From: Moraxella nasicaprae
GTDB lineage: Bacteria > Pseudomonadota > Gammaproteobacteria > Pseudomonadales > Moraxellaceae
Direction of reading: 5' to 3'
Assembly: GCF_025643275.1 (NCBI RefSeq)
Contig: NZ_CP089977.1
Location: 900,001 to 932,000 of the forward strand
DNA: 32,000 nucleotides
The position numbers were made by a program, and so were the translations under genes. Every line of letters starts with the position of its first letter. Within the stretch, counting starts at the first letter, position 1. Below the pieces are notes generated by a model that made no database searches, was not told the origin of the DNA, and saw only the letters and a program-made list of their open reading frames with translations. Shown piece by piece: positions 6,944 to 16,570 of this stretch.

Positions 6944-7201
6944 TCAAGACAATACCGACCCAAAACCACCCCCTTGCCAATGATGAAAAAATTCTTCTTG
7001 CCACAATCCATCTTGGGTCACGCCCAAATAATCATTACTGGCAAGATTAAACAGCAACGCCCCATCATCGCCCAATTTGACATATTTACCCTGATGTAAT
7101 AGCGGATAAAGATGGCGATGATTGTTTTGTTGTTTTAGGTGGGTTAATTGATGAGCATAATCGTCCAACAGATGTTCACGCACGCACCATCTCCTTGACA
7201 A
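6944..7201 (-). pseudogene. bioF: 5' remnant of bioF (8-amino-7-oxononanoate synthase): about 85 codons, then TGA
   Basis: The fragment contains LFNLASNDYLGV...GGGFGS, matching the BioF N-terminus (YLNFSSNDYLGL...FGIGSGGS), and it overlaps the bioA 3' end as in bioA-bioF operons. The PLP-lysine region and the remaining ~300 codons are absent: only ~490 nt lie between bioA and bioD. Confidence 0.7.
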
Positions 7202-8471
7202 ATGCCACCACCTGCGTCAAAAGATGGTCAAGCTGCTCATCGCTGATGACAAAAGGCGGCATCACATAAACCAATCGACCAAAAGGACGAATCCAAATCC
7301 CTCGTGCCACGCATTGCTGAGCCACTTTGCTCATATCTACCGCATGGGCAAGCTCCACCACACCGATGGCTCCAAAAGCTCGCACATCGACCACGCCAGC
7401 AACATCGGTCAGCACCGATAATTTGTCTTGGCACATTGCCTGTATGCGAGCAACATTACCTTGCCAATCGCCATCAAGCAGCAGCTGTATGCTGGACATT
7501 GCCACACGACACGCCAAAGGATTTGCCATAAAAGTTGGGCCATGCATGAATACGCCAGCCTCGCCATCGCTGATGGTTTGTGCCACTTGGCTGGTGGTCA
7601 AGGTGGCTGACAATGTCATGTATCCCCCTGTCAATGCCTTGCCCACACACATGATGTCAGGACAAATATCTGCATGTTCGCAAGCAAACAATTTGCCCGT
7701 CCTGCCAAACCCTGTGGCTATCTCATCACAAATCAGCAATATCTCATATTCATCGCACAACTGCCTTAGCTGGGTCAAATAGCGTGGATGATAAAATCTC
7801 ATACCACCAGCCCCCTGCACCACAGGCTCAATGATGAACGCTGCCAGCGTCTGATGATGAGCCTCAAAGACTTGTCTGACTTCATTCATCTGTTCATCAG
7901 ACCACTCATCATCGATGCCAATGCTGGGTGCTGGCACAAAAATACGACTGGGCAGTGCTTGCCCAAAAATCTGATGCATGCCCGTCACAGGGTCGCACAC
8001 ACTCATTGCATTCCAAGTATCGCCATGATAGCCGGAACGAGTCGTAATGATGTTTTGTTTGTTTGGTTTGCCTTTGGCGTGCCAATATTGTACCGCCATT
8101 TTTAGGGCGACTTCTACCGCCACTGAGCCAGAATCGGCATAAAAAATGTGTTGTAGTGGTGCTGGTGTGATTGATAACAGTAATTTACCCAATTCAATCG
8201 CAGGCTCGTGCGTCAAGCCACCAAACATCACATGAGCCATCTGCGAAAGCTGGTCGGTAACGGCTTGATTGAGTACAGGGTGATTATAGCCATGAATGGC
8301 ACACCACCAAGACGACATACCGTCAATGAGCGTACTGCCATCTGCCAAGGTAATTTGACAGCCATCAGCTCGTGCCACTTTTAGGGCAGCAATCGGGTTG
8401 GTCATTGAGGTATAAGGGTGCCATAGGTGAGCGGTGTCAAAATCATCAAGTATCGCCAACATCGCCATCAT
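7176..8471 (-). CDS. bioA: Adenosylmethionine-8-amino-7-oxononanoate aminotransferase (BioA)
   Basis: A class-III aminotransferase with HLWHPYTSM near the N-terminus (E. coli BioA has HIWHPYTSM) and the [18 protein letters not shown]-lysine region. The maximal ORF starts at a GTG (8543). An ATG at 8471 or 8468 after AAGGA is more plausible. Confidence 0.93.
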
Positions 8472-8584
8472 ATTCCTTGCAAAAAAAGTTATGATAGCGG
8501 ATTTATCAAGCAAATGATATAGTAAATTAAACTCAAAATGCACCGCACTGGGTTTTTTACAGCAAAATCACATAGTACCACAAA

Positions 8585-8613
8585 CAAAAAAGCCCCTGCC
8601 ATAACACAGGGAC
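8585..8613 (-). terminator. Rho-independent terminator downstream of the 1431-aa gene
   Basis: Minus strand reads GTCCCTG-TGTTATGG-CAGGGGC followed by TTTTTTG, 16 nt after the stop at 8629. Confidence 0.55.
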
Positions 8614-8628
8614 TTTGTTTTTAGGCAC

Positions 8629-11600
8629 TTACGCCATTTCTTTCACTTTACTCTCAATAAACGCAATTTCATCATCGCTTAACCCATATTTGGCATAAAG
8701 CTGTTTATCAATCTCAGCAATGGATTGGGACCAATCAATATCAGAATTTTCGGTAAAGTCTTGTAGGGGGACTTTTGACCATTTTTCTTTTGTGTTGTCT
8801 TGGGTAATTTTTAAAACACCCAACATAGTTCGTGCAAATTTGCTTTTTACATATTTTAGGCAATTTTCGGCTTCCAAAAGCGTATTAAAACAACCAATAG
8901 AAATAAAGGTTTCGGTATACCCGATTAGGGGTTCCCCGATTAGGGGTTCCCCGATTAGGGGTGTGCTTAGAACTTCACCAATTGCCCCAGAACCGTTGGC
9001 TTTGGGTAAAATGACCTTAAAAGACCCCAAGTTCTCAGGCTCGCTTAAATAGGCTTTTTTGAACCATTTAAAGCATCTCTCATTTTCAAAACGCCCTAAA
9101 ATCTGAATGTATTCTTCGCCATCATCAGGTTTTTCATCTGTAAATAAATGTGGTAATTTCACAAACGCATTGGAAGCAATTCGTCTATCTGAAATTTGTT
9201 CCATATCTTTTGGATAGTCTCTATAAATTTTATCTGAATAACGATATTGTCCACGATTGGTAACAATTTCATCTAATGTATTTTTCGTTAATTTGCCAAC
9301 TTTTTGAGAAATGGTATTCAATTCATTGAATGTTGTAAATGTACCAATCGCCCCAAACTCCTGATGTATATCACGACATAAAATCGCAATACCACCTTTA
9401 ATATCAGTATTGGCAAAAACATTTTCGGATTTTTGTTCAAAATAAACCACTTTGATATGCTTATCATTAAGCATTTTTTCATTCCAATTTTTATCGGTAC
9501 TTCCTGCATTAAATAAAAATCGTGCTGGCGAAATCAAACAATATTTATCAGAATTTTTTTCAGCCAAATCATAAAAATAATGATAAATTGGGGTATCTTT
9601 TGTGCTTTCGCCCTTTGCATTTTCCTGATAAGGTGGATTACCCACTACAACATCAAATTTCATTGCTTTTCCAAAAATTTCTGTTAATTTTTCATTAAAA
9701 TCTAATTCGCCTTTGGCATAAGGCGTGGTATCCAAATGCACAATATGGCTATGGTCAAACTCACCAGCCTTATCCAATCCCAAAATAAAGTTTTTGGCGA
9801 TATTATAAATAATCTCACTTGGAGCAAAACCATAGACTTGATTGGCAAAAATGTGTTTGAGCCTTGCTTTATCATCAGGAATATGATTTTTTAAACCTTG
9901 ATACAAGCGTTTGACAATCTCGGTAATATACAACCCTGATTTCATATACAAATCGGCAAATGTGATATCAGGATTTTTAAAAATATCAGGATTTTCGCTT
10001 TCAAATTTGTCCATCATCATTTTTACCACCCATTTTGGCGTAAAAATCTGATTGGTTTTTTGTGGCGGAATATAATCAAAAATGTCTTCGCTTTGATTTT
10101 CATCAAAATAGTTGGCTAATGCTTGGCGTTTATTCAAAAACTCTTGCACAGAAGTATCAAACACCTGCTCATCAAAAAGTTGATGTTTGTCTCGCAAAAT
10201 GCGAAATTCATCAATCGTAATGTCTGTAACTTCTTTAAACACACGATCTGAAATATGCATATCAAAATTTGCCAATCTGGTATGTTCATTACCATATGCC
10301 ATCAAAAAAGACGGAATGGTACGACTAAACCCACGCAAACGCCCACGCATATCATCTTCCACCTTATCTTGCTTATTTTGCTCGGCTTTTTGTAGAATGC
10401 TTTCGGTGCTGTTTTGGGTAAATTCAGCGACTTTTATATTGACCGTTTCGCTGATTTTATTTTGCAAATCTTGGGTTATTGATTGTGTTTTGATTTCATA
10501 TTCATTTTGGATTTGCTGTTTTTGATCGTCGGTTTTGGCATTTTTTAATTCATTTTCAAATTGAATTTTGGCAACATTTTGTTCAATTCTGCTGTACTCT
10601 TGAAGTTTTTGCACTTCATTGACAAGCATTTTACTTTGTTCTTTAACCACTTTTTCGGCAAATTTTTCACTTACGCCTATTTCTTTTGCCAAATCTTTAA
10701 AGGCACTTTGCGTATTTTGTGTTAAGACATCGGTTAATTGAGTTGCCAAATTTTGATTATCTAAATTTGCTGTATGAATAATATCGTGCGTGGCGGTTTT
10801 AATATCACCATACACTTTTTCGCCAAAACGAGCATTATTGGTATTTACCACGATTTCATTATCAACCAACGCCTTGCCATTTTCATCTAATTGAACACCC
10901 TGCGTATCAATCGGTGTATTAGTTTTATTGGGCGTCATTTTACCTGCTTCAACAGGATTGATTTGTTCCAAAATTTGACGAATTTCTTCATTGTTTGCCC
11001 CAAAAATCCGCCCCACATTTTGAAATAACAAATTACTCAAAAAGCCTTTTCTAACCACCTCATTGGCTTTAATTATCTTTGGAATGGTCAAAACCTGATT
11101 GACATCAAGCTCTATCATTTTGCCATCTGCATCTTCGGCAATGACTGGAAAAAAGTTTAATAATTCACGGATATTCTCTTCACGATTTTGATTAGTACCG
11201 CTACCGCCCCTTGTATTTTTGGATAAATTATTAGCAAATTCATCATAAATAATGAGCGTGCGTTCTGGTGCAAAATCAAAGACATAGGCATTTTTCTTTT
11301 GATAAACTTGCCCATTTTGTTCATATTGCCACGCATTTTGAACTCTAAATGCCGTTTGCATATACAAAGCAGGCGATTTGACATTAGACAACATCAAAAC
11401 GGCTGTCCACTCTGGAATGGTTACACCTGTGGTTAATTGCCCAACCGATAAAGTAATGGTTTTGTCATTTTCTTTAATTGCTTTTTTGACACGGTTTAGG
11501 GCTGTACTGCTGATGACATCGGTTTCATCGCCACGACCATCGCCTGCCGCCAGCACAATCTTATAATGCTCAAAAACAGGGTGATTTTTTAATAATTTGG

Positions 11601-12924
11601 CTAGGGCTTTGGCACTGTCCACACGATTTAATAACCAAAATGTGTGTTTTAATTCATCTCGCAACGCTTTGGTAGAAAAAGGATATTTTTCATTTTGACT
11701 TAATGTATTAAGCCATTTTTCCACTTCTTTTTTGTGGATAAAATACCCTTTATCATCGGTGGCAAAAAACTCATTTAAATCAAAAGCAAAATCCCTATTT
11801 TCGCCATCAATATCCGCCCCTTGACCGACTTTATCGCTTATCATTTGGCTCATTTGATAGCTAAATAGATTTAAAGTAGGTAAAGCTGCATAGGGATTAT
11901 GTGCCTCGCCGCACCATTGTGATTTGGCTTTTTGCTCATCGGCATAAGTCCAATTATAAATCTCATCTTGGGCAAACTGTCCACTTGCCAATGCCTTAAA
12001 GGGCGTACCTGACAAATGTAAGGTAAAATCACGATTGATTTGCTCAAATGCCAAATCGGTTTTAAAGGTATCCACCCCTTCGTGAGCTTCATCAATCACG
12101 AGTAAGTCCCATTGTAATGATTTAACCCATTCTAATTTATCAAATTTTCCGCCAAAACAAATTGCCCCTTTTAAATCTTGCAGCGAAATAAAAGCAATCA
12201 TCTGTTTTTTGCCATTGGGTTTGCTTGTTTGGTCAAGAAATTCATCACGAGTTAAAACAGGGCGTTCTTTTAGGGTATCCGCTGTTGAAACAAACGCAAA
12301 ATCGCTTTGCCACGCAATGAATTTTTCAAAATCATCAAACCAAGAATGGGCAATGGCTGGGCGATTGGTAACAATCAAAACGGTTTTGGCATTTAACTTT
12401 CTGATTAAATCATAAGTCGTTAAAGTTTTACCAAATCTGGGTTTGGCATTCCACAAAAATTCACCATTTGGATTATTTTGAAAATATGCCAAAGTTTGAT
12501 TAACGGCTTCCGATTGTTCCTGCCGTAATTGATATTCTAATTGTTCGTTTTCTTGATTAAAGTTTTGGGCAACAAAATCATTAAAATCCACCAAACTTTG
12601 CTTGGGTGTGCCATTATAAAAAAACCATTCGGTATTGGGTTTATTTTTTATCTTTTTATATTTTTTTAGATAAGAATGCAATTGGTGGTCGCTAAAAATA
12701 CGATTATCAGCAAATCGTGCCACGCTATGCCACAATAAATCATAATCCAAATCTACCGTGCCCACCTGCTCTTTGATGCGTGTATTAACATCTTGACGCT
12801 CGGTATAGCCGATTTTTATCCAACCTTCTTTGCTTTTAACATCAGGCAAAGCATAAGCATAAATTTGTGGAAAAATCAGTTTACTGGTATTAATTTGGGT
12901 TTTATCAACATTCATAACCATCAC
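8629..12924 (-). CDS. Fusion protein: T5orf172/GIY-YIG-like module, SF2 DEAH helicase, coiled-coil spacer, gamma-class N6-adenine DNA methyltransferase and C-terminal recognition domain (Type ISP-like restriction-modification/defence enzyme)
   Basis: 1431-aa ORF. aa 18-105 read IYAYALP..WIKIGYTERQDVNTRIKEQ..HQLHSYL..NTEWFF (T5orf172/MUG113 pattern). Helicase motifs are Walker A PRFGKT (aa 162-167), VIDEAHEG (276-283), SGTP (305-308) and QTAFRVQN (523-530). aa ~640-860 are Q/N/K/E-rich. Methyltransferase motifs are IFTPKWVV (960-967) and FDVVVGNPPYQ (1090-1100; NPPY is nt 9628-9639). The C-terminal tail LYAKYGLSDDEIAFIE is typical of Eco57I/TaqI-type methylases. The start is ambiguous among GTG 12924, ATG 12921 and ATG 12915; the last has the best spacing from a GGAG. 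Confidence 0.85.
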   Translation of the reverse strand: MMVMNVDKTQINTSKLIFPQIYAYALPDVKSKEGWIKIGYTERQDVNTRIKEQVGTVDLDYDLLWHSVARFADNRIFSDHQLHSYLKKYKKIKNKPNTEWFFYNGTPKQSLVDFNDFVAQNFNQENEQLEYQLRQEQSEAVNQTLAYFQNNPNGEFLWNAKPRFGKTLTTYDLIRKLNAKTVLIVTNRPAIAHSWFDDFEKFIAWQSDFAFVSTADTLKERPVLTRDEFLDQTSKPNGKKQMIAFISLQDLKGAICFGGKFDKLEWVKSLQWDLLVIDEAHEGVDTFKTDLAFEQINRDFTLHLSGTPFKALASGQFAQDEIYNWTYADEQKAKSQWCGEAHNPYAALPTLNLFSYQMSQMISDKVGQGADIDGENRDFAFDLNEFFATDDKGYFIHKKEVEKWLNTLSQNEKYPFSTKALRDELKHTFWLLNRVDSAKALAKLLKNHPVFEHYKIVLAAGDGRGDETDVISSTALNRVKKAIKENDKTITLSVGQLTTGVTIPEWTAVLMLSNVKSPALYMQTAFRVQNAWQYEQNGQVYQKKNAYVFDFAPERTLIIYDEFANNLSKNTRGGSGTNQNREENIRELLNFFPVIAEDADGKMIELDVNQVLTIPKIIKANEVVRKGFLSNLLFQNVGRIFGANNEEIRQILEQINPVEAGKMTPNKTNTPIDTQGVQLDENGKALVDNEIVVNTNNARFGEKVYGDIKTATHDIIHTANLDNQNLATQLTDVLTQNTQSAFKDLAKEIGVSEKFAEKVVKEQSKMLVNEVQKLQEYSRIEQNVAKIQFENELKNAKTDDQKQQIQNEYEIKTQSITQDLQNKISETVNIKVAEFTQNSTESILQKAEQNKQDKVEDDMRGRLRGFSRTIPSFLMAYGNEHTRLANFDMHISDRVFKEVTDITIDEFRILRDKHQLFDEQVFDTSVQEFLNKRQALANYFDENQSEDIFDYIPPQKTNQIFTPKWVVKMMMDKFESENPDIFKNPDITFADLYMKSGLYITEIVKRLYQGLKNHIPDDKARLKHIFANQVYGFAPSEIIYNIAKNFILGLDKAGEFDHSHIVHLDTTPYAKGELDFNEKLTEIFGKAMKFDVVVGNPPYQENAKGESTKDTPIYHYFYDLAEKNSDKYCLISPARFLFNAGSTDKNWNEKMLNDKHIKVVYFEQKSENVFANTDIKGGIAILCRDIHQEFGAIGTFTTFNELNTISQKVGKLTKNTLDEIVTNRGQYRYSDKIYRDYPKDMEQISDRRIASNAFVKLPHLFTDEKPDDGEEYIQILGRFENERCFKWFKKAYLSEPENLGSFKVILPKANGSGAIGEVLSTPLIGEPLIGEPLIGYTETFISIGCFNTLLEAENCLKYVKSKFARTMLGVLKITQDNTKEKWSKVPLQDFTENSDIDWSQSIAEIDKQLYAKYGLSDDEIAFIESKVKEMA
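8921..8963. repeat. In-frame 15-bp tandem repeat (CCCGATTAGGGGTTC x2 plus 13 nt) encoding (PLIGE)x~3
   Basis: The direct tandem copies at 8921-8935 and 8936-8950 are identical. A third copy at 8951-8963 diverges at 8964. The repeat translates on the minus strand as PLIGEPLIGEPLIG (aa 1322-1335 of the 1431-aa protein). Confidence 0.95.
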
Positions 12925-13835
12925 TCCATAAAATTAACCAATTTTCCCGTTTGCCAATCTTTGATTTTGACAAGTCGTCCTTGATGAACCATAATCTCTT
13001 GTGGTTTTGCTGTATCAAATAAGTCATCTTGAGGATAAGAAACGAGTTGTCTTTTTTGTGATAAGGGAATGGTGCAAGTCAATCCATCCATTTGAAAAAT
13101 GTTATAACTGATGATTTGGGCGACTTGCAGCAATTCATCGATGGACGGCTTGCTCTGCCATTTGTCCATATAAAAATCATAATAGGTTAATAACAAGTTT
13201 TCCCTTGCCAATAATAAAGAGTCGCCATTCCATTCAAATCCATAGCTTGCTTGATAGGCTTTTTTAGCCCAATATTGCCATTGTTTTGGATTGTCAATTT
13301 CTTGATTGATGCGCCTTAATTTCCTATCCAAAAATCCTGCTCGCTCATTCAATTCAATCAATTCGCCTGTTGCCATTTCATAGCGATTGGCAAGATAAGG
13401 GGCTTCACCACAAGTGATTTCAAGCCAAGTTCTCCCAATATAGGTTTTTAAATCATCATCTTTAAAATTTTTGTCCAAAGCATCGTTTTGTTTTTTGACA
13501 ATCCAACTGGGGGTAAAAACTTCTGCCTTAGATTTGGTGCGTTCTTTTTGTTGTGCCTTGGATTTTAAAGCTCTGGGAATGATTAAATTCCCCTGATTGC
13601 CTGTAATCAAATCAGGGGTGATGGGGCAAGTTGCGCCATACTTTTTACCAAGCCCAATATAATTGTCATTTGCCCAAATAATATTCTTTTTCTTTTTGCT
13701 ATAATAAGAAGAGGTTCGGTCTTTTAATAAAACTTCCAAGATTTCTGGAGAGTATTGATACAAATCATTCTCCGACAAATTGGCAATATCAAAATCAATT
13801 GTCATCTTTTGGGGCGTAACTTGTTTATCAATCAT
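12921..13835 (-). CDS. Methyltransferase-like protein lacking the (D/N)PPY catalytic motif; first gene of the two-gene operon
   Basis: 304-aa ORF with ATG at 13833-13835, preceded by GGGGG 6 nt upstream. AEVFTPSWIVKK (aa 104-115) resembles gamma-MTase motif X and parallels IFTPKWVVKM in the downstream protein. WLEITCGEAPYL (137-148) resembles M.TaqI motif I (VLEPACAHGPFL). There is no PP dipeptide anywhere in the protein. Its stop TGA (12921-12923) overlaps the start of the 1431-aa gene. Confidence 0.75.
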   Translation of the reverse strand: MIDKQVTPQKMTIDFDIANLSENDLYQYSPEILEVLLKDRTSSYYSKKKKNIIWANDNYIGLGKKYGATCPITPDLITGNQGNLIIPRALKSKAQQKERTKSKAEVFTPSWIVKKQNDALDKNFKDDDLKTYIGRTWLEITCGEAPYLANRYEMATGELIELNERAGFLDRKLRRINQEIDNPKQWQYWAKKAYQASYGFEWNGDSLLLARENLLLTYYDFYMDKWQSKPSIDELLQVAQIISYNIFQMDGLTCTIPLSQKRQLVSYPQDDLFDTAKPQEIMVHQGRLVKIKDWQTGKLVNFME

Positions 13836-13855
13836 TGCAAGCCCCCAAATTTAGA

Positions 13856-13892
13856 CAACAAAAAACCTACTTCCAAGCGGAAGCAGGTTGTT
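13856..13892 (-). terminator. Intrinsic terminator/attenuator-like hairpin ~25 nt upstream of the operon ATG
   Basis: Minus strand reads AACAA-CCTGCTTCC-GCTT-GGAAGTAGG-TTTTTTGTTG: a 9-bp stem with one G-U pair, a 4-nt loop and a 6-U tract. Confidence 0.65.
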
Positions 13893-13950
13893 AGATGATG
13901 AATGATTAGGCTGTTAAAAGATTGATTTTTAACAAAAAAGTTATGTGGTT

Positions 13951-14160
13951 TTAGCTGAACGGCTGAACGGCTGAACGGCTGAACGGCTGAACGGCTGAAC
14001 GGCTGAACGGCTGAACGGCTGAACGGCTGAACGGCTGAACGGCTGAACGGCTGAACGGCTGAACGGCTGAACGGCTGAACGGCTGAACGGCTGAACGGCT
14101 GAACGGCTGAACGGCTGAACGGCTGAACATTATCGTTTGTCTATCAAAAATAGCAAGCAT
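13951..14160 (-). other. Repeat-containing upstream ORF (candidate regulatory leader ORF, not a structural protein)
   Basis: The ATG at 14158-14160 opens MLAIFDRQTIMF, followed by (SRSAVQPF)x7 encoded by the 8-nt repeat. In the present frame the ORF stops at TAA 13951-13953. There is no strong Shine-Dalgarno sequence. Confidence 0.3.
13954..14128. repeat. Octanucleotide microsatellite (GCTGAACG): 21 complete units plus 7 nt
   Basis: Perfect tandem 8-mers counted directly over 175 nt. The minus-strand unit is CGTTCAGC, which has no stop codon in any frame. Confidence 0.98.
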
Positions 14161-14224
14161 ATTTTAAGAAAAATCCAACAAAATACGCCCTATACTACAA
14201 TATTTTTGCACAGAATTAAAGTGG

Positions 14225-14259
14225 TAAAAAAATCCCCCAAACAACTTGCTTGGGGGATT
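14225..14259 (-). terminator. Rho-independent terminator of tRNA-Ser
   Basis: Minus strand reads ATCCCCCAA-GCAAGTTGT-TTGGGGGAT followed by a T-run of 6-7, beginning 9 nt after the tRNA CCA end. Confidence 0.8.
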
Positions 14260-14267
14260 ATCGTATA

Positions 14268-14358
14268 TGGCGGTGAAGAAGGGATTTGAACCCTTGATAC
14301 GCTATTAACGTATACACACTTTCCAGGCGTGCGCTTTCGACCACTCAGCCACTTCACC
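14268..14358 (-). tRNA. tRNA-Ser (anticodon GGA), class II with long variable arm, CCA encoded
   Basis: I folded the minus-strand sequence by hand. Acceptor stem is GGTGAAG/CTTCACC. The D stem has 3 bp. The anticodon stem is CACGC/GTGTG with loop CTGGAAA, giving anticodon GGA. The variable arm is 5 bp (ATACG/CGTAT). The T arm is AAGGG-TTCAAAT-CCCTT. The discriminator is G, followed by CCA. Total length 91 nt. Confidence 0.93.
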
Positions 14359-14368
14359 AGTGGGCGTT

Positions 14369-14397
14369 ATTATATCGCTAAGCCAGCAAAATTGCAA
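14369..14397 (-). promoter_or_regulatory. Sigma70-type promoter of tRNA-Ser
   Basis: Minus strand reads TTGCAA (14392-14397), a 17-nt spacer, then TATAAT (14369-14374). A GC-rich discriminator (AACGCCCACT) runs into the tRNA 5' end. Confidence 0.6.
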
Positions 14398-14400
14398 GAC

Positions 14401-14814
14401 TCACGCATCAGGCAAGCGTGCCATCCAAATCGATACCGCAAGACAAATCGCCCCAACCAAGCCTGCCACCCATAGTTTACCATCAGGCAGGCTAAACAAC
14501 AGCACCACCACAGACACGCTCATCATGCCCCACGCCATGTATTTGGCAAATCTTGGCATCGCACGGCGTTCTTGCCAATCCATAATCATCTTGCCAAAAA
14601 TCTTATGTCGCAATAAATAAGCATAAAATCGACGAGAGCTTTTTGCCCAGCAGTAAGCTGCTAATAAAATAAACACCGTCGTTGGTAAACCTGGCACAAC
14701 CACACCCAGCAAACCTAGACCAAAAAACATCACACCCAAGCCAAAAAACACACCCCGCATGAGGGCGTTTTGGTGCAAAGGATTATTGGGCGATTGTTTC
14801 ATGACACTAAGCAT
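14401..14814 (-). CDS. ybaN: DUF454 family inner-membrane protein (YbaN-like)
   Basis: 137-aa hydrophobic ORF. GLPTTVFILLAAYCWAKSSRRFYAYLLRHKIFG matches the YbaN/DUF454 signature region. An alternative start is the ATG at 14802. Confidence 0.8.
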   Translation of the reverse strand: MLSVMKQSPNNPLHQNALMRGVFFGLGVMFFGLGLLGVVVPGLPTTVFILLAAYCWAKSSRRFYAYLLRHKIFGKMIMDWQERRAMPRFAKYMAWGMMSVSVVVLLFSLPDGKLWVAGLVGAICLAVSIWMARLPDA

Positions 14815-14943
14815 TCTTGGATTTGCCTGTTGGTAAAAAATGAAGAGTTATTGTAGCCAAATTCATGGCACACCAACAGTAGAAAATTTCAAATAGTCCG
14901 ATTAACAAAATATGATAACAGTCTGACTCCAAAAAGTAAAATA

Positions 14944-14962
14944 AAAATGATTATTATTTGCG
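14944..14962. promoter_or_regulatory. Candidate Fur box upstream of hemO
   Basis: AAAAATGATTATTATTTGC matches the 19-bp consensus GATAATGATAATCATTATC at 13 of 19 positions (hand alignment), ~105 nt upstream of the hemO ATG. Confidence 0.4.
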
Positions 14963-15066
14963 GGAAAATACTTTACTTTTTAGATGATGTTTGATAAATT
15001 ACAACGGTATTTTGGCTAAATAATAAGCATACTTTTTTTCAAAATCATCGTCAAGGAAATACAAAA

Positions 15067-15627
15067 ATGACCACCATCACCGAAGCACTCAAAGAACACT
15101 CTCGCACCACTCACGACAGCGTGGACAATTTGGTCATGTCGATGCAGCCCTTTGCCAGTCATGACAATTATCGCAAATTTTTACAAGCCCAATATGAATT
15201 TCATTCGGCAGTATTGCCAATTTATACCAAAGAGTTTTTGACTTCACACATTGACGGTCTGATTAACCTATCTCGTCTTGACCGAGTCAAATCAGACATG
15301 AAAGACCTAGAAGTTGCTCCATTCCAAACAGGCATCGAAGTGCCAAATTATACCGATGATGAGGCGATTGGCTGGCTGTACTGCGTTGAAGGCTCGAATG
15401 TTGGGGCAGCCATTTTATACAAAGAGGCAGGCAAAATCGACTTGACCGATGAATTTGGTGCATCACATTTGGCGGCTCACGAAGATGGTCGTATGCCGCA
15501 TTGGCGTGCTGTGAAAGCCAAGATTGACGCACTACCGCTCAGTGATGATGCCAAAGCCGCTGCCATGAAAGGGGCTGATGATGCCTTTGCTTATTTTAAA
15601 GCACTGATTCGAAAAATCTATGGCTAA
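15067..15627 (+). CDS. hemO: Heme oxygenase (HemO/PigA-type, biliverdin-producing)
   Basis: 186-aa ORF. THDSVDNLVMSMQPF, AIGWLYCVEGSNVGAAILYK and HLAAHEDGRMPHWRA are closely similar to Neisseria HemO as I remember it. An AAGGA Shine-Dalgarno precedes the ATG. Confidence 0.88.
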   Translation: MTTITEALKEHSRTTHDSVDNLVMSMQPFASHDNYRKFLQAQYEFHSAVLPIYTKEFLTSHIDGLINLSRLDRVKSDMKDLEVAPFQTGIEVPNYTDDEAIGWLYCVEGSNVGAAILYKEAGKIDLTDEFGASHLAAHEDGRMPHWRAVKAKIDALPLSDDAKAAAMKGADDAFAYFKALIRKIYG

Positions 15628-15634
15628 CACACCA

Positions 15635-15663
15635 ACCCAAAGTAACAATACTTTGGGTTTTTT
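15635..15663 (+). terminator. Rho-independent terminator of hemO
   Basis: CCCAAAGT-AACAAT-ACTTTGGG followed by TTTTTT, 8 nt after the hemO stop. Confidence 0.8.
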
Positions 15664-15739
15664 ATGATGTTTATTTGGGGCAAATAAGGTGTATTTATGC
15701 TAAAATAGGCAAAATTCTTCTCAATCATTGATGGTAACA

Positions 15740-16570
15740 ATGAATAAATTTGCCCTACTTCAAACCCTAGTGCCACAGCAAACCCTCAGCGAATTGGCAG
15801 GTATGCTTGCCAAAAGCGAGGTTTCTTATGTCAAAAAACCACTCATCAAAACTTTTGCCAAAGCCTATGGCATCAAACTTGATGAATACGACAGAGGCTC
15901 GTTGGACGACTACACCAGTTTTAACGATTTTTTTACTCGTGAGCTCAAAGACAACGCTCGCCCCATTGACCCAACCCCAAATGGCATCATCTGCCCTGCT
16001 GATGGCACGGTTTCTCAGCTTGGCAACATTCACGCCCAAGCCATCTTACAAGCCAAAGGTAAGGACTACGAGGTCGGTCAGTTATTGGCAGATTTTGATG
16101 ATGGTCAGTATTTTGCTGATGGCAGCTTTGCCACCATCTATCTTGCTCCCAGCAACTATCATCGGGTGCATATGCCATTTGACGGCAAACTCATCGCCAC
16201 TCGCTATGTGCCTGGCACGCTATTTTCAGTGAACAACACCACTGCACAGCATGTGCCTGACCTATTTGCTCGCAATGAACGATTGGTCTGTGTATTTCAG
16301 ACCGCTTTTGGTAAGGCGTGCGTGGTGCTGGTTGGTGCGATGATTGTCGCTGGCATCGAATGCGTTGCCACAGGTCCAATCAAACGCACGCCATACATTC
16401 AGTATCGCACTCACGATTTGACCCTTGCCAAAGGCGATGAACTTGGTCGATTCTATCTAGGCTCAACCGCCATCATCGTTCTGCCAAAACAAGCAGGCAC
16501 GGCTTGGCAAGATGACATTGCACACGGCTCAGTTGTGATGATGGGACAAAAAATCGGGCAGTTAAGCTAA
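15740..16570 (+). CDS. psd: Phosphatidylserine decarboxylase proenzyme (Psd)
   Basis: FNDFFTREL, the GTVSQ region, HRVHMP and the LGST self-cleavage motif (FYLGSTAIIV) are all present. The ORF track starts at a TTG (15728). ATGs at 15731 or 15740 (MNKFALLQ) are more plausible. Confidence 0.92.
   Translation: MNKFALLQTLVPQQTLSELAGMLAKSEVSYVKKPLIKTFAKAYGIKLDEYDRGSLDDYTSFNDFFTRELKDNARPIDPTPNGIICPADGTVSQLGNIHAQAILQAKGKDYEVGQLLADFDDGQYFADGSFATIYLAPSNYHRVHMPFDGKLIATRYVPGTLFSVNNTTAQHVPDLFARNERLVCVFQTAFGKACVVLVGAMIVAGIECVATGPIKRTPYIQYRTHDLTLAKGDELGRFYLGSTAIIVLPKQAGTAWQDDIAHGSVVMMGQKIGQLS

Follow-up and report, generated by a model that had tools for sequence, protein, structure and literature searches.

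What kind of enzyme is encoded by two adjacent genes in an AT-rich stretch of Moraxella nasicaprae DNA, and do they work together? The genes lie in a window of 32,000 nucleotides (assembly GCF_025643275.1, contig NZ_CP089977.1, positions 900,001 to 932,000 of the forward strand); "the window" here means this whole stretch, and all coordinates are counted from its first letter. An earlier note on the same DNA, made from the letters alone, had read the pair as a defence islet: a nuclease, helicase and methyltransferase in one chain, with the logic of Type ISP enzymes, coupled to a second methyltransferase-like gene. The locus is real, intact, horizontally mobile and of restriction-modification (RM) type. 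We consider it probable (about 0.72) that it encodes a two-subunit ATP-dependent RM enzyme of a widespread, uncharacterised modular family, whose methylase is split between the two proteins. Both open reading frames (ORFs) are on the minus strand, confirming their co-orientation, and the 304-aa gene (13835..12921) lies upstream of the 1431-aa ORF (12924..8629). The genes, and the modules of the large protein, are as follows:

12921..13835, minus strand: gene A, 304 aa, predicted N-terminal half of an Eco57I-family gamma methyltransferase
8629..12924, minus strand: large gene, 1431 aa from GTG 12924, or 1428 aa from the probable start ATG 12915
12622..12861, minus strand: predicted T5orf172 (GIY-YIG clan) nuclease module, aa 22-101 (Pfam PF10544, E 5.7e-5, 24.0 bits against a cut-off of 20)
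11005..12534, minus strand: superfamily 2 (SF2) helicase/translocase, aa 131-640, with motifs I PRFGKT, II DEAH, III SGTP and VI QTAFRVQN
10378..11004, minus strand: N/Q/E/K-rich spacer, aa 641-849, the least conserved stretch (identity to the query 0.28-0.45)
9664..10377, minus strand: helical coupler, aa 850-949, and A', the methylase N-half that the large protein itself carries, aa 950-1087
8632..9663, minus strand: B, the methylase C-half (MKFDVVVGNPPYQ) with a putative recognition domain at aa ~1191-1431; NPPY, aa 1096-1099, lies at 9628-9639

The order of modules in the large protein, from N to C terminus, is T5orf172 nuclease, SF2/ResIII motor, variable spacer, gamma-class N6-adenine methyltransferase and recognition domain. 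Every motif quoted for it in the earlier note was found at the residues given: PRFGKT at 162-167, VIDEAHEG at 276-283, SGTP at 305-308, QTAFRVQN at 523-530, IFTPKWVV at 960-967 and FDVVVGNPPYQ at 1090-1100. Pfam domains were counted only above their curated cut-offs, and by that standard the N-terminus is, as had been proposed, a predicted GIY-YIG-type nuclease domain. The GIY...YIG tyrosines and the catalytic Arg and Glu of the superfamily are present; IYAY (21-24), KIGYTE (37-42), R48, H..YL and E99 (in NTEWF) were at least 90% conserved in 41 homologues, and many large-protein homologues carry a precomputed PF10544 match. T5orf172 falls within the GIY-YIG superfamily, and another T5orf172 protein, ICP1 Gp88, has been described as an origin-directed nuclease in which the catalytic Arg and Glu are retained (PMC8263062). 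The assignment of an SF2/Res-like helicase also held: ResIII matched aa 131-309 (Pfam, E 1.5e-14), PHROG 16 'DNA helicase' matched at E 7e-33, and motifs I, II, III and VI were nearly invariant (at least 90%) in the 41 homologues, which span phyla, the motor being the most conserved stretch of the protein. The spacer is poorly conserved and has the Q/N/K/E-rich composition given in its earlier description; a coiled coil, also named there, is hinted at only by this composition and by very weak bZIP-like profile matches.

The gamma-class N6-adenine methyltransferase of the large protein was likewise borne out. The Eco57I profile (PF07669) matched aa 1028-1170 (E 1.5e-21) and was covered in full (1-171), NPPY was invariant or at least 90% conserved in the 41 homologues, and PADLOC MTase_II PDLC03375 spanned aa 1086-1430. 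A' carries the motifs IFTPKWVV, DLYMKSGLY and VYGFAPSE; the large protein has the motifs X, I-III and IV and the seven-strand Rossmann fold of the Eco57I family, though with Ala in place of the motif II acid. An AlphaFold2 (AF2) model of aa 850-1431, with a predicted local distance difference test score (pLDDT) of 84.8, comprised a helical region, then a Rossmann domain with all seven strands and, at the C-terminus, a mixed alpha/beta domain; strands beta1-beta3 fell in A' (aa 989-991, 1030-1034 and 1061-1063). When compared by Foldseek, the A'+B model matched CamA (E 1e-14), BrxX/PglX (7e-12), LlaBIII (2e-10) and LlaGI (2e-9), with M.BseCI, DrdV and MmeI as further matches. The C-terminus had been described as a TaqI_C/Eco57I-like recognition region; the structural model points to a recognition domain in B, but no Pfam TaqI_C match was found in the large protein. 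NCBIfam gave no match. The PDB, solved Type ISP chains included, was searched by sequence and by profile with the two proteins and with their alignments, and again nothing matched.

The identity of gene A is the point on which our analysis departs most from the earlier note, whose second methyltransferase-like gene turned out to be half of one. The small protein matched PADLOC MTase_II PDLC03390 (E 2e-88); it had no Pfam, NCBIfam, PHROG or PDB match. Motifs X (EVFTPSWIV, 105-113), I (LEITCGEAPY, 138-147), II (YGFE, 198-201) and III (FQMDG, 247-251) are all present, and 80 columns were invariant among 35 homologues, including E139, G143, E201 and D250. Its sequence contains no motif IV ((D/N/S)PP(Y/F/W)) and no NPPY, and it lacks the C-terminal half of the Eco57I-family fold. 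An exhaustive homologue search with the small protein returned 1455 cluster representatives, many of them single chains of about 630 aa, in which the small protein aligned only ahead of NPPY and the Pfam Eco57I profile began within the part that it matched. In P0246, a single-chain methylase of 629 aa, residues 7-280 matched the small protein (47-49% identity, E 7e-72), and the large protein's final 344 residues were matched by residues 290-628 (46% identity, E 2e-93). Because A and these last 344 residues are collinear with the single-chain methylases, we read A as the N-half and B as the matching C-half. Judged from such alignments, the small protein is the N-terminal half, of the type that binds S-adenosylmethionine (AdoMet), of an Eco57I-family methylase and not a second methyltransferase.

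We fetched 80 loci from genomes of many phyla (loci carry the prefix L) and mapped three modules in each: A, B, and N-H-A', the latter composed of the T5orf172 nuclease, SF2 motor, spacer and A'. The arrangements were:

33 loci, the commonest form: A, then N-H-A', then a separate B ORF starting MKFD..GNPPY
25 loci: A, then fused N-H-A'-B, the form in the window; among these the N-terminus was not T5orf172 in 5, and two extra B-only ORFs were present in 1 (L066)
3 loci: A and B without a helicase
L001, the locus of P0246: A and B fused

In the 33 three-gene loci the helicase protein terminates right after A'. In L001, the one locus with B joined to A, a 1097-aa nuclease-motor-spacer-A' protein lies two genes beyond P0246; it ends before NPPY and shares 52% identity with residues 10-1049 of the large protein. 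Gene A was found upstream and on the same strand in every sampled helicase-bearing locus with enough contig, and directly adjacent in nearly all. This linkage spans Proteobacteria, Bacillota, Actinomycetota, Verrucomicrobiota, Planctomycetota, Spirochaetota and one archaeal metagenome-assembled genome (MAG). On whether the two genes always occur together, then, A is indeed linked in all sampled helicase-bearing loci, but the two-gene form is one permutation and the three-gene form the commonest. Since B occurs fused to A', free, or fused to A, this Rosetta-stone evidence suggests that the products of A, the helicase gene and B act in one complex.

Two phages carry the methylase modules alone. 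Fusobacterium phage FNU4 (L097, 3501-5384) has a single-chain A-B beside an integrase, without nuclease or helicase, and Tenacibaculum jumbo phage PTm1 (L098, 2079-4511) has a B-only gp277 (32% identity, E 6e-42), a helix-turn-helix (HTH) gene and an A-only gp279. Because these phages carry A and B alone, the two halves together probably suffice as a working methylase. They may be methylases by which the phages protect themselves against this RM family.

B behaved differently from the other modules. Two Granulicatella loci (L022 and L025) have N-H-A' proteins that are 95% identical to each other, whereas the two B genes show 60% and 26% identity to the query. In a co-evolution test of pairwise distances over 54 loci, distances of A, the motor and A' were correlated among themselves (r 0.54-0.76), whereas those of B were nearly uncoupled from all three (r 0.02-0.23); parts of B correlated with each other (r 0.43-0.64). 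No module was more divergent than B, whose central part had a mean distance of 0.59. Because near-identical N-H-A' proteins carry divergent B modules, and because the distances of B are uncoupled, we interpret B as a specificity cassette: A, motor and A' co-evolve while B is exchanged independently, in a pattern like the independent swapping of HsdS in Type I systems. An independently swapped B suggests an easy route to new specificities.

The mechanism we propose for the two-subunit RM enzyme is as follows: B would recognise a short asymmetric target and, with an N-half to complete it, would make N6-methyladenine (m6A) on host DNA. At an unmodified target, the SF2 motor would hydrolyse ATP and move along the DNA, after which the GIY-YIG-type nuclease would cut, in a logic like that of Type ISP and Type I enzymes. 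A would be an obligatory subunit contacting B and/or A', and B an exchangeable specificity cassette, here fused to A'. What the sequences show is the identity of the domains, conserved catalytic motifs, linked genes, permuted fusions, the separate evolution of B and a varying repeat number; complex formation, methylation, ATP-driven translocation, cleavage, defence, and an effect on expression of the repeat tract described below are the parts of this account that we infer. The signs of a mobile, defence-like locus are a trough in GC content, homologues on 91 plasmids, and a locus in which McrB, an McrC::A fusion and a T5orf172-helicase gene follow one another.

The family is by no means rare. 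More than 8000 near-full-length homologues of the large protein were found across phyla, at about 60% identity; those on plasmids were mostly from Enterococcus and lactic acid bacteria, 39 being on Enterococcus plasmids. RefSeq names for these proteins include 'Eco57I ... domain-containing protein', 'restriction endonuclease' and 'N-6 DNA methylase'. The architecture had been put forward as uncharacterised, and we found none like it described in the literature that our searches covered or in the PDB; it is, however, common, and PADLOC calls the pair REase_MTase_IIG plus MTase_II.

Does anything upstream of the operon bear on when it is expressed? The features of the leader, with the other elements in and around the two genes, are:

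14129..14156, minus strand: sigma-70-like promoter TTGCTA-16-GATAAT, identified by consensus match and conservation, ending directly at the repeat tract
13954..14128, minus strand: simple-sequence repeat (GCTGAACG)x21.9 = (GTTCAGCC)x21.9 in the presumed 5' leader
13855..13889, minus strand: terminator-like hairpin and T-run, with an 11-bp stem and 5 G-C pairs, 20 nt before the ribosome-binding site (RBS)/ATG of A
8920-8962, minus strand: in-frame 15-nt repeat (x2.9) of PLIGE units in a loop of B (loop pLDDT <50)
8589..8616, minus strand: terminator-like hairpin and T-run ending the operon, with an 11-bp stem, 13 nt past the stop codon
14268-14358: tRNA-Ser(GGA), upstream of the leader, with its own terminator at 14231-14259

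A spacer of about 65 nt separates the repeat tract from the terminator-like hairpin, and between the hairpin and ATG 13835 there is no space for a further promoter. The promoter layout is kept before the repeat in two other Moraxella loci (TTGCAA-16-TATAAT in L006 and TTGCAA-16-GATAAT in L007), with a different spacer sequence. The hairpin and its T-rich tail (TTTTTGTTGTCC in several loci) occupy the same place in L002, L003, L005, L006, L007 and L008, with different stems. Tracts upstream of the operon in other Moraxella are homologous and are built either of an 8-mer (x5.4 in L006, at least x11 in L008) or of 7-mers (GTTCAGC x13.4 in L007; GTCAAGC at least x10 in L003 and x18 in L005); the units GTTCAGCC, GTTCAGC and GTCAAGC differ between species. 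The same promoter-repeat-terminator layout was seen at L006 9650-10000, at L007 9550-10000, and upstream of the A gene in L085-L090. Strains of M. bovoculi with identical flanks have 3, 5, 8, 16 or 24 repeat units, and short-read contigs break within the tract. Of the hypermutable repeats invoked by the earlier note, this upstream tract of 7/8-nt units is hypermutable, and it is the sole repeat of the locus that is demonstrably so. The 15-nt repeat within B is present as x2.9 units in L004 and x2.7 in L007, with two units in the family consensus. As a switch we rejected it, since it is in frame and of equal length in relatives; it is a loop-length polymorphism that can produce no shift of reading frame.

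The leader repeat and terminator of Moraxella probably make expression vary between cells. One candidate route, a leader peptide with a frame that depends on repeat number, was judged unlikely. A mechanical ORF of 69 aa, made of FSRSAVQP repeats, spans 13951-14160 on the minus strand; the repeat is open in each of its reading frames, one of which leads out to a TGA that overlaps ATG 13835. The peptide's own ATG falls inside the conserved -35 element, however, and both 7- and 8-nt units occur, which argues against coupling to the ATGA start. Leader or promoter repeat tracts are known from host-adapted bacteria, as in the AGAT repeats of M. catarrhalis uspA2 and the 7-bp repeats of H. influenzae hmw. 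Like these, the Moraxella tract is a short non-triplet repeat before a start codon, with a copy number that varies between strains; unlike them, it begins at the -10 element, and downstream of it a conserved terminator hairpin stands shortly ahead of the RBS.

The junction of the two genes reads GGAGTGATGGTTATG. It does contain the GTGATG at which the ORFs had been said to overlap, the TGA stop of A overlapping both the mechanical start GTG 12924 and an ATG at 12921. It is more likely, however, that the large gene starts at ATG 12915, which has a Shine-Dalgarno (SD) sequence, GGAG, 8 nt upstream and gives the 1428 aa of the NCBI protein; with this start the genes are separated by a 5-nt gap instead of overlapping, and the linkage is still tight. 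The large protein is 100% identical to M. nasicaprae WP_263077188.1, and the small protein is likewise 100% identical to its M. nasicaprae entry, WP_263077189.1. The AT-richness of the islet is evident, with a GC content of 0.32-0.37 over 9000-14000 against about 0.45 in the flanks. The adjacent tRNA had been taken as a sign of an accessory locus. A tRNA-Ser(GGA) is indeed present, but its adjacency looks incidental. A tRNA-targeted integrative island was rejected, since there are no flanking direct repeats, no integrase ORF occurs in 7000-16000, and the loci of relatives lie away from tRNAs; no repeat of the tRNA 3' end was found at the far side of the islet. In Faucicola mancuniensis (L004, 9700-9830) an operon 89% identical to that of the window lies downstream of an apparent 5S rRNA gene, identified by eye, and the islet therefore sits at different chromosomal sites in close relatives. 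The repeat tract is absent before the F. mancuniensis operon.

Further variation was noted among related loci. On the Enterococcus faecium plasmid pAT02-a (L084, 375-8338) the linezolid-resistance gene optrA is followed, about 900 bp downstream, by a homologous pair that comprises a 248-aa 'N-6 DNA methylase' and a 1445-aa protein. In a Holophagaceae MAG (L066, 15322-17631), B-only ORFs of 359 and 348 aa lie downstream of the fused large gene, each preceded by a stretch resembling the end of A'; they may be alternative specificity subunits or recombination cassettes. A marine metagenome locus (L082, 1226-7240) encodes an McrB-like GTPase, then an McrC-like nuclease::A fusion, then a T5orf172-helicase gene, an arrangement that would link a modification-dependent restriction pair to this system. 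A sister family (L029, 9917-15189; L033, L049, L071 and L076) has a helicase-methylase protein without T5orf172; in L029, A and the helicase gene flank an unannotated ORF of 226 aa, a candidate for a separate nuclease. Set among the methylase and helicase genes of L001 (2062-3804 and 7129-8041) are two Fic-domain genes and two unknown ORFs, of 333 and 196 aa.

Several points weigh against a two-subunit ATP-dependent RM enzyme. Full-text literature searches found no experiment on any family member. The model of A (AF2 pLDDT 74.5) had no significant Foldseek match, the best being MmeI (E 0.75), then DrdV, LlaGI and BrxX. The variable part of B is short, at about 90-100 aa. The leader is predicted to keep one fold whatever the number of repeats. 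Minimum-energy folds kept the terminator at 0-30 repeats, which led us to reject the repeat RNA as an anti-terminator. A and A' are in register from motif X to beta1, in a weak alignment (hhalign E 0.007, probability 5.5%). Finally, a single C-half (B) faces two N-halves (A and A'), which is unexplained, and A' has Ala at the motif II position usually held by Asp or Glu, with a degenerate motif I glycine loop (KSG). In a rival reading, the system would be a Type I/III-like holoenzyme with A+B as the true methylase core and A' as a non-catalytic decoy N-half that only docks the nuclease-motor subunit onto it; B might then alternate between A for methylation and A' for restriction. This is possible, though we doubt it. 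The canonical motif I, II and III residues are kept in A (E139, G143, E201 and D250 are invariant), A' departs from the canon at the motif II acid and in the glycine loop, phages carry A+B alone, L001 joins B to A, and the A-to-B linker in fused forms is long (about 55 aa of beta-hairpins); yet in the AF2 model A'+B forms a complete Rossmann domain in cis, with good confidence, a short linker joins A' and B covalently in the 25 fused loci, and in the distance (mirror-tree) analysis A was no better supported than A' as B's partner (partial r 0.04 vs 0.18). A bolder version is unlikely: a distinct ATP-dependent RM class with the split Rossmann methylase as a switch (B+A methylates, B+A' licenses translocation and GIY-YIG cleavage), with, in Moraxella, a hypermutable 7/8-nt repeat at the transcript's 5' end that would act through the downstream terminator as a novel sort of contingency switch for the whole enzyme, for example by tuning Rho loading or read-through.

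It is slightly less probable again that the system only modifies or regulates, whether as a phase-variable methylase ('phasevarion') or as a relic whose nuclease-motor part no longer restricts. The operon does have a hypervariable repeat upstream, of a kind typical of phase-variable methylases in host-adapted bacteria, and A+B orphans without a helicase occur. A nuclease-motor part that had fallen out of use sits poorly, however, with an intact full-length ORF, with more than 8000 full-length homologues, and with nuclease Y, Y, R and E residues and motor motifs I, II, III and VI that are at least 90% conserved across phyla, in a protein whose motor is its most conserved part. Evidence from the related DnmA-YeeB-YeeC set, which has the same three domain families, points both ways: in B. 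subtilis it gave no restriction or phage protection, DnmA being an orphan regulator (PMC9973331), which counts against our preferred reading as well, whereas dnmA/yeeB homologues of Vibrio crassostreae alter phage sensitivity, as cited in the same paper (PMC9973331). We regard as least probable of all a defence that is abortive or does not cleave, in which motor and methylase sense foreign DNA and block replication in the manner of BREX, or the nuclease attacks host DNA. The methylase-recognition unit is nearly as close to BrxX/PglX (E 7e-12) as to CamA, and methylases of this class commonly modify one strand of asymmetric sites (PMC2731913), but PADLOC matched RM models only, no other BREX or DISARM component was detected, and a conserved nuclease domain is fused to the motor. 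An ATP-dependent RM enzyme of two subunits, with a methylase divided between them, stays our preferred account of the locus.

Two features of this locus stand out: a methylase that is split and permuted, and a leader that combines repeat and terminator. The family is very common, yet we found no experiment, structure or dedicated description of it; with it, the Type ISP and Type I enzymes would gain a multi-subunit relative of GIY-YIG type. One catalytic half-domain shuffled among three proteins is a natural experiment on the assembly of split methyltransferases, and it also informs how RM enzymes couple the reading of a target to a motor. The repeat-plus-terminator leader is a test case for repeat-controlled expression of a defence system in veterinary Moraxella.

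How, then, does the system compare with those already known? The Type ISP-like logic seen by the earlier note stands, with a nuclease of another family. The Type ISP enzymes LlaGI and LlaBIII share the order of nuclease, SF2 motor, coupler, gamma-class N6-adenine methylase and C-terminal recognition domain, with the ATPase between nuclease and methylase, and their methylase-recognition units are structurally similar to ours, as the Foldseek matches show. LlaGI and LlaBIII are close relatives that differ mainly in the specificity module (PMC3553950), as do members of the present family. The Type ISP nuclease, however, is of the Mrr PD-(D/E)xK type, whereas here it belongs to the T5orf172/GIY-YIG clan; a Type ISP enzyme is a single polypeptide acting alone, whereas here A is always present and B is separate in 33 loci; and the spacer of about 200 aa is extra. 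Type ISP enzymes translocate with the use of ATP and cleave on collision. The solved Type ISP chains have no detectable sequence or profile similarity to the large protein.

The DnmA(YeeA)-YeeB-YeeC clusters, which occur in low-GC islands (PMC9973331), combine the domain families of our linked set differently. They have a complete MmeI-like methylase chain that lacks PD-ExK and separate helicase and nuclease genes, in the order methylase, helicase, nuclease; here nuclease and helicase are fused at the N-terminus, the methylase is divided and a further N-half subunit is present, so that gene and domain order set the two apart. Morgan et al. proposed a Type I-like RM system with a GIY-YIG nuclease for those clusters (PMC2731913). 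Morgan et al. (PMC2731913) and Smith et al. (PMC3553950) each have one sentence on fused enzymes of large size, or on relatives that carry GIY-YIG nucleases, and call them unstudied. Full-text literature searches, with most subscription journals and REBASE outside their coverage, found no paper on the present architecture beyond such general remarks.

Eco57I-type (Type IIG) systems share the Eco57I-family methylase domain (PF07669) and a two-gene layout with one methylase-related gene. The large protein matched PADLOC REase_MTase_IIG (E 3e-42), a partial match in 4 stretches that was best over the C-terminal 130 aa. Type IIG enzymes hold nuclease, methylase and recognition domain in one chain, cut at a fixed distance and are without an ATPase motor, whereas this protein has an SF2 motor of 510 aa and a partner without a catalytic half. 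CamA, the orphan N6-adenine methylase of Clostridioides difficile, is the best structural match of A'+B (Foldseek E 1e-14, TM 0.45-0.49) and shares a gamma methylase followed by a C-terminal DNA-recognition domain, at only 13-15% sequence identity; it is a stand-alone single chain with no nuclease and no motor. Type III systems are further removed, with a beta-class Mod that has an internal recognition domain and a Res with a C-terminal PD-(D/E)xK nuclease, as against the gamma motif order, C-terminal recognition domain and N-terminal T5orf172 found here. Set beside all of these, and on the mechanism proposed above, the system is a variant of ATP-dependent RM with Type ISP- and Type I-like logic, not a new category.

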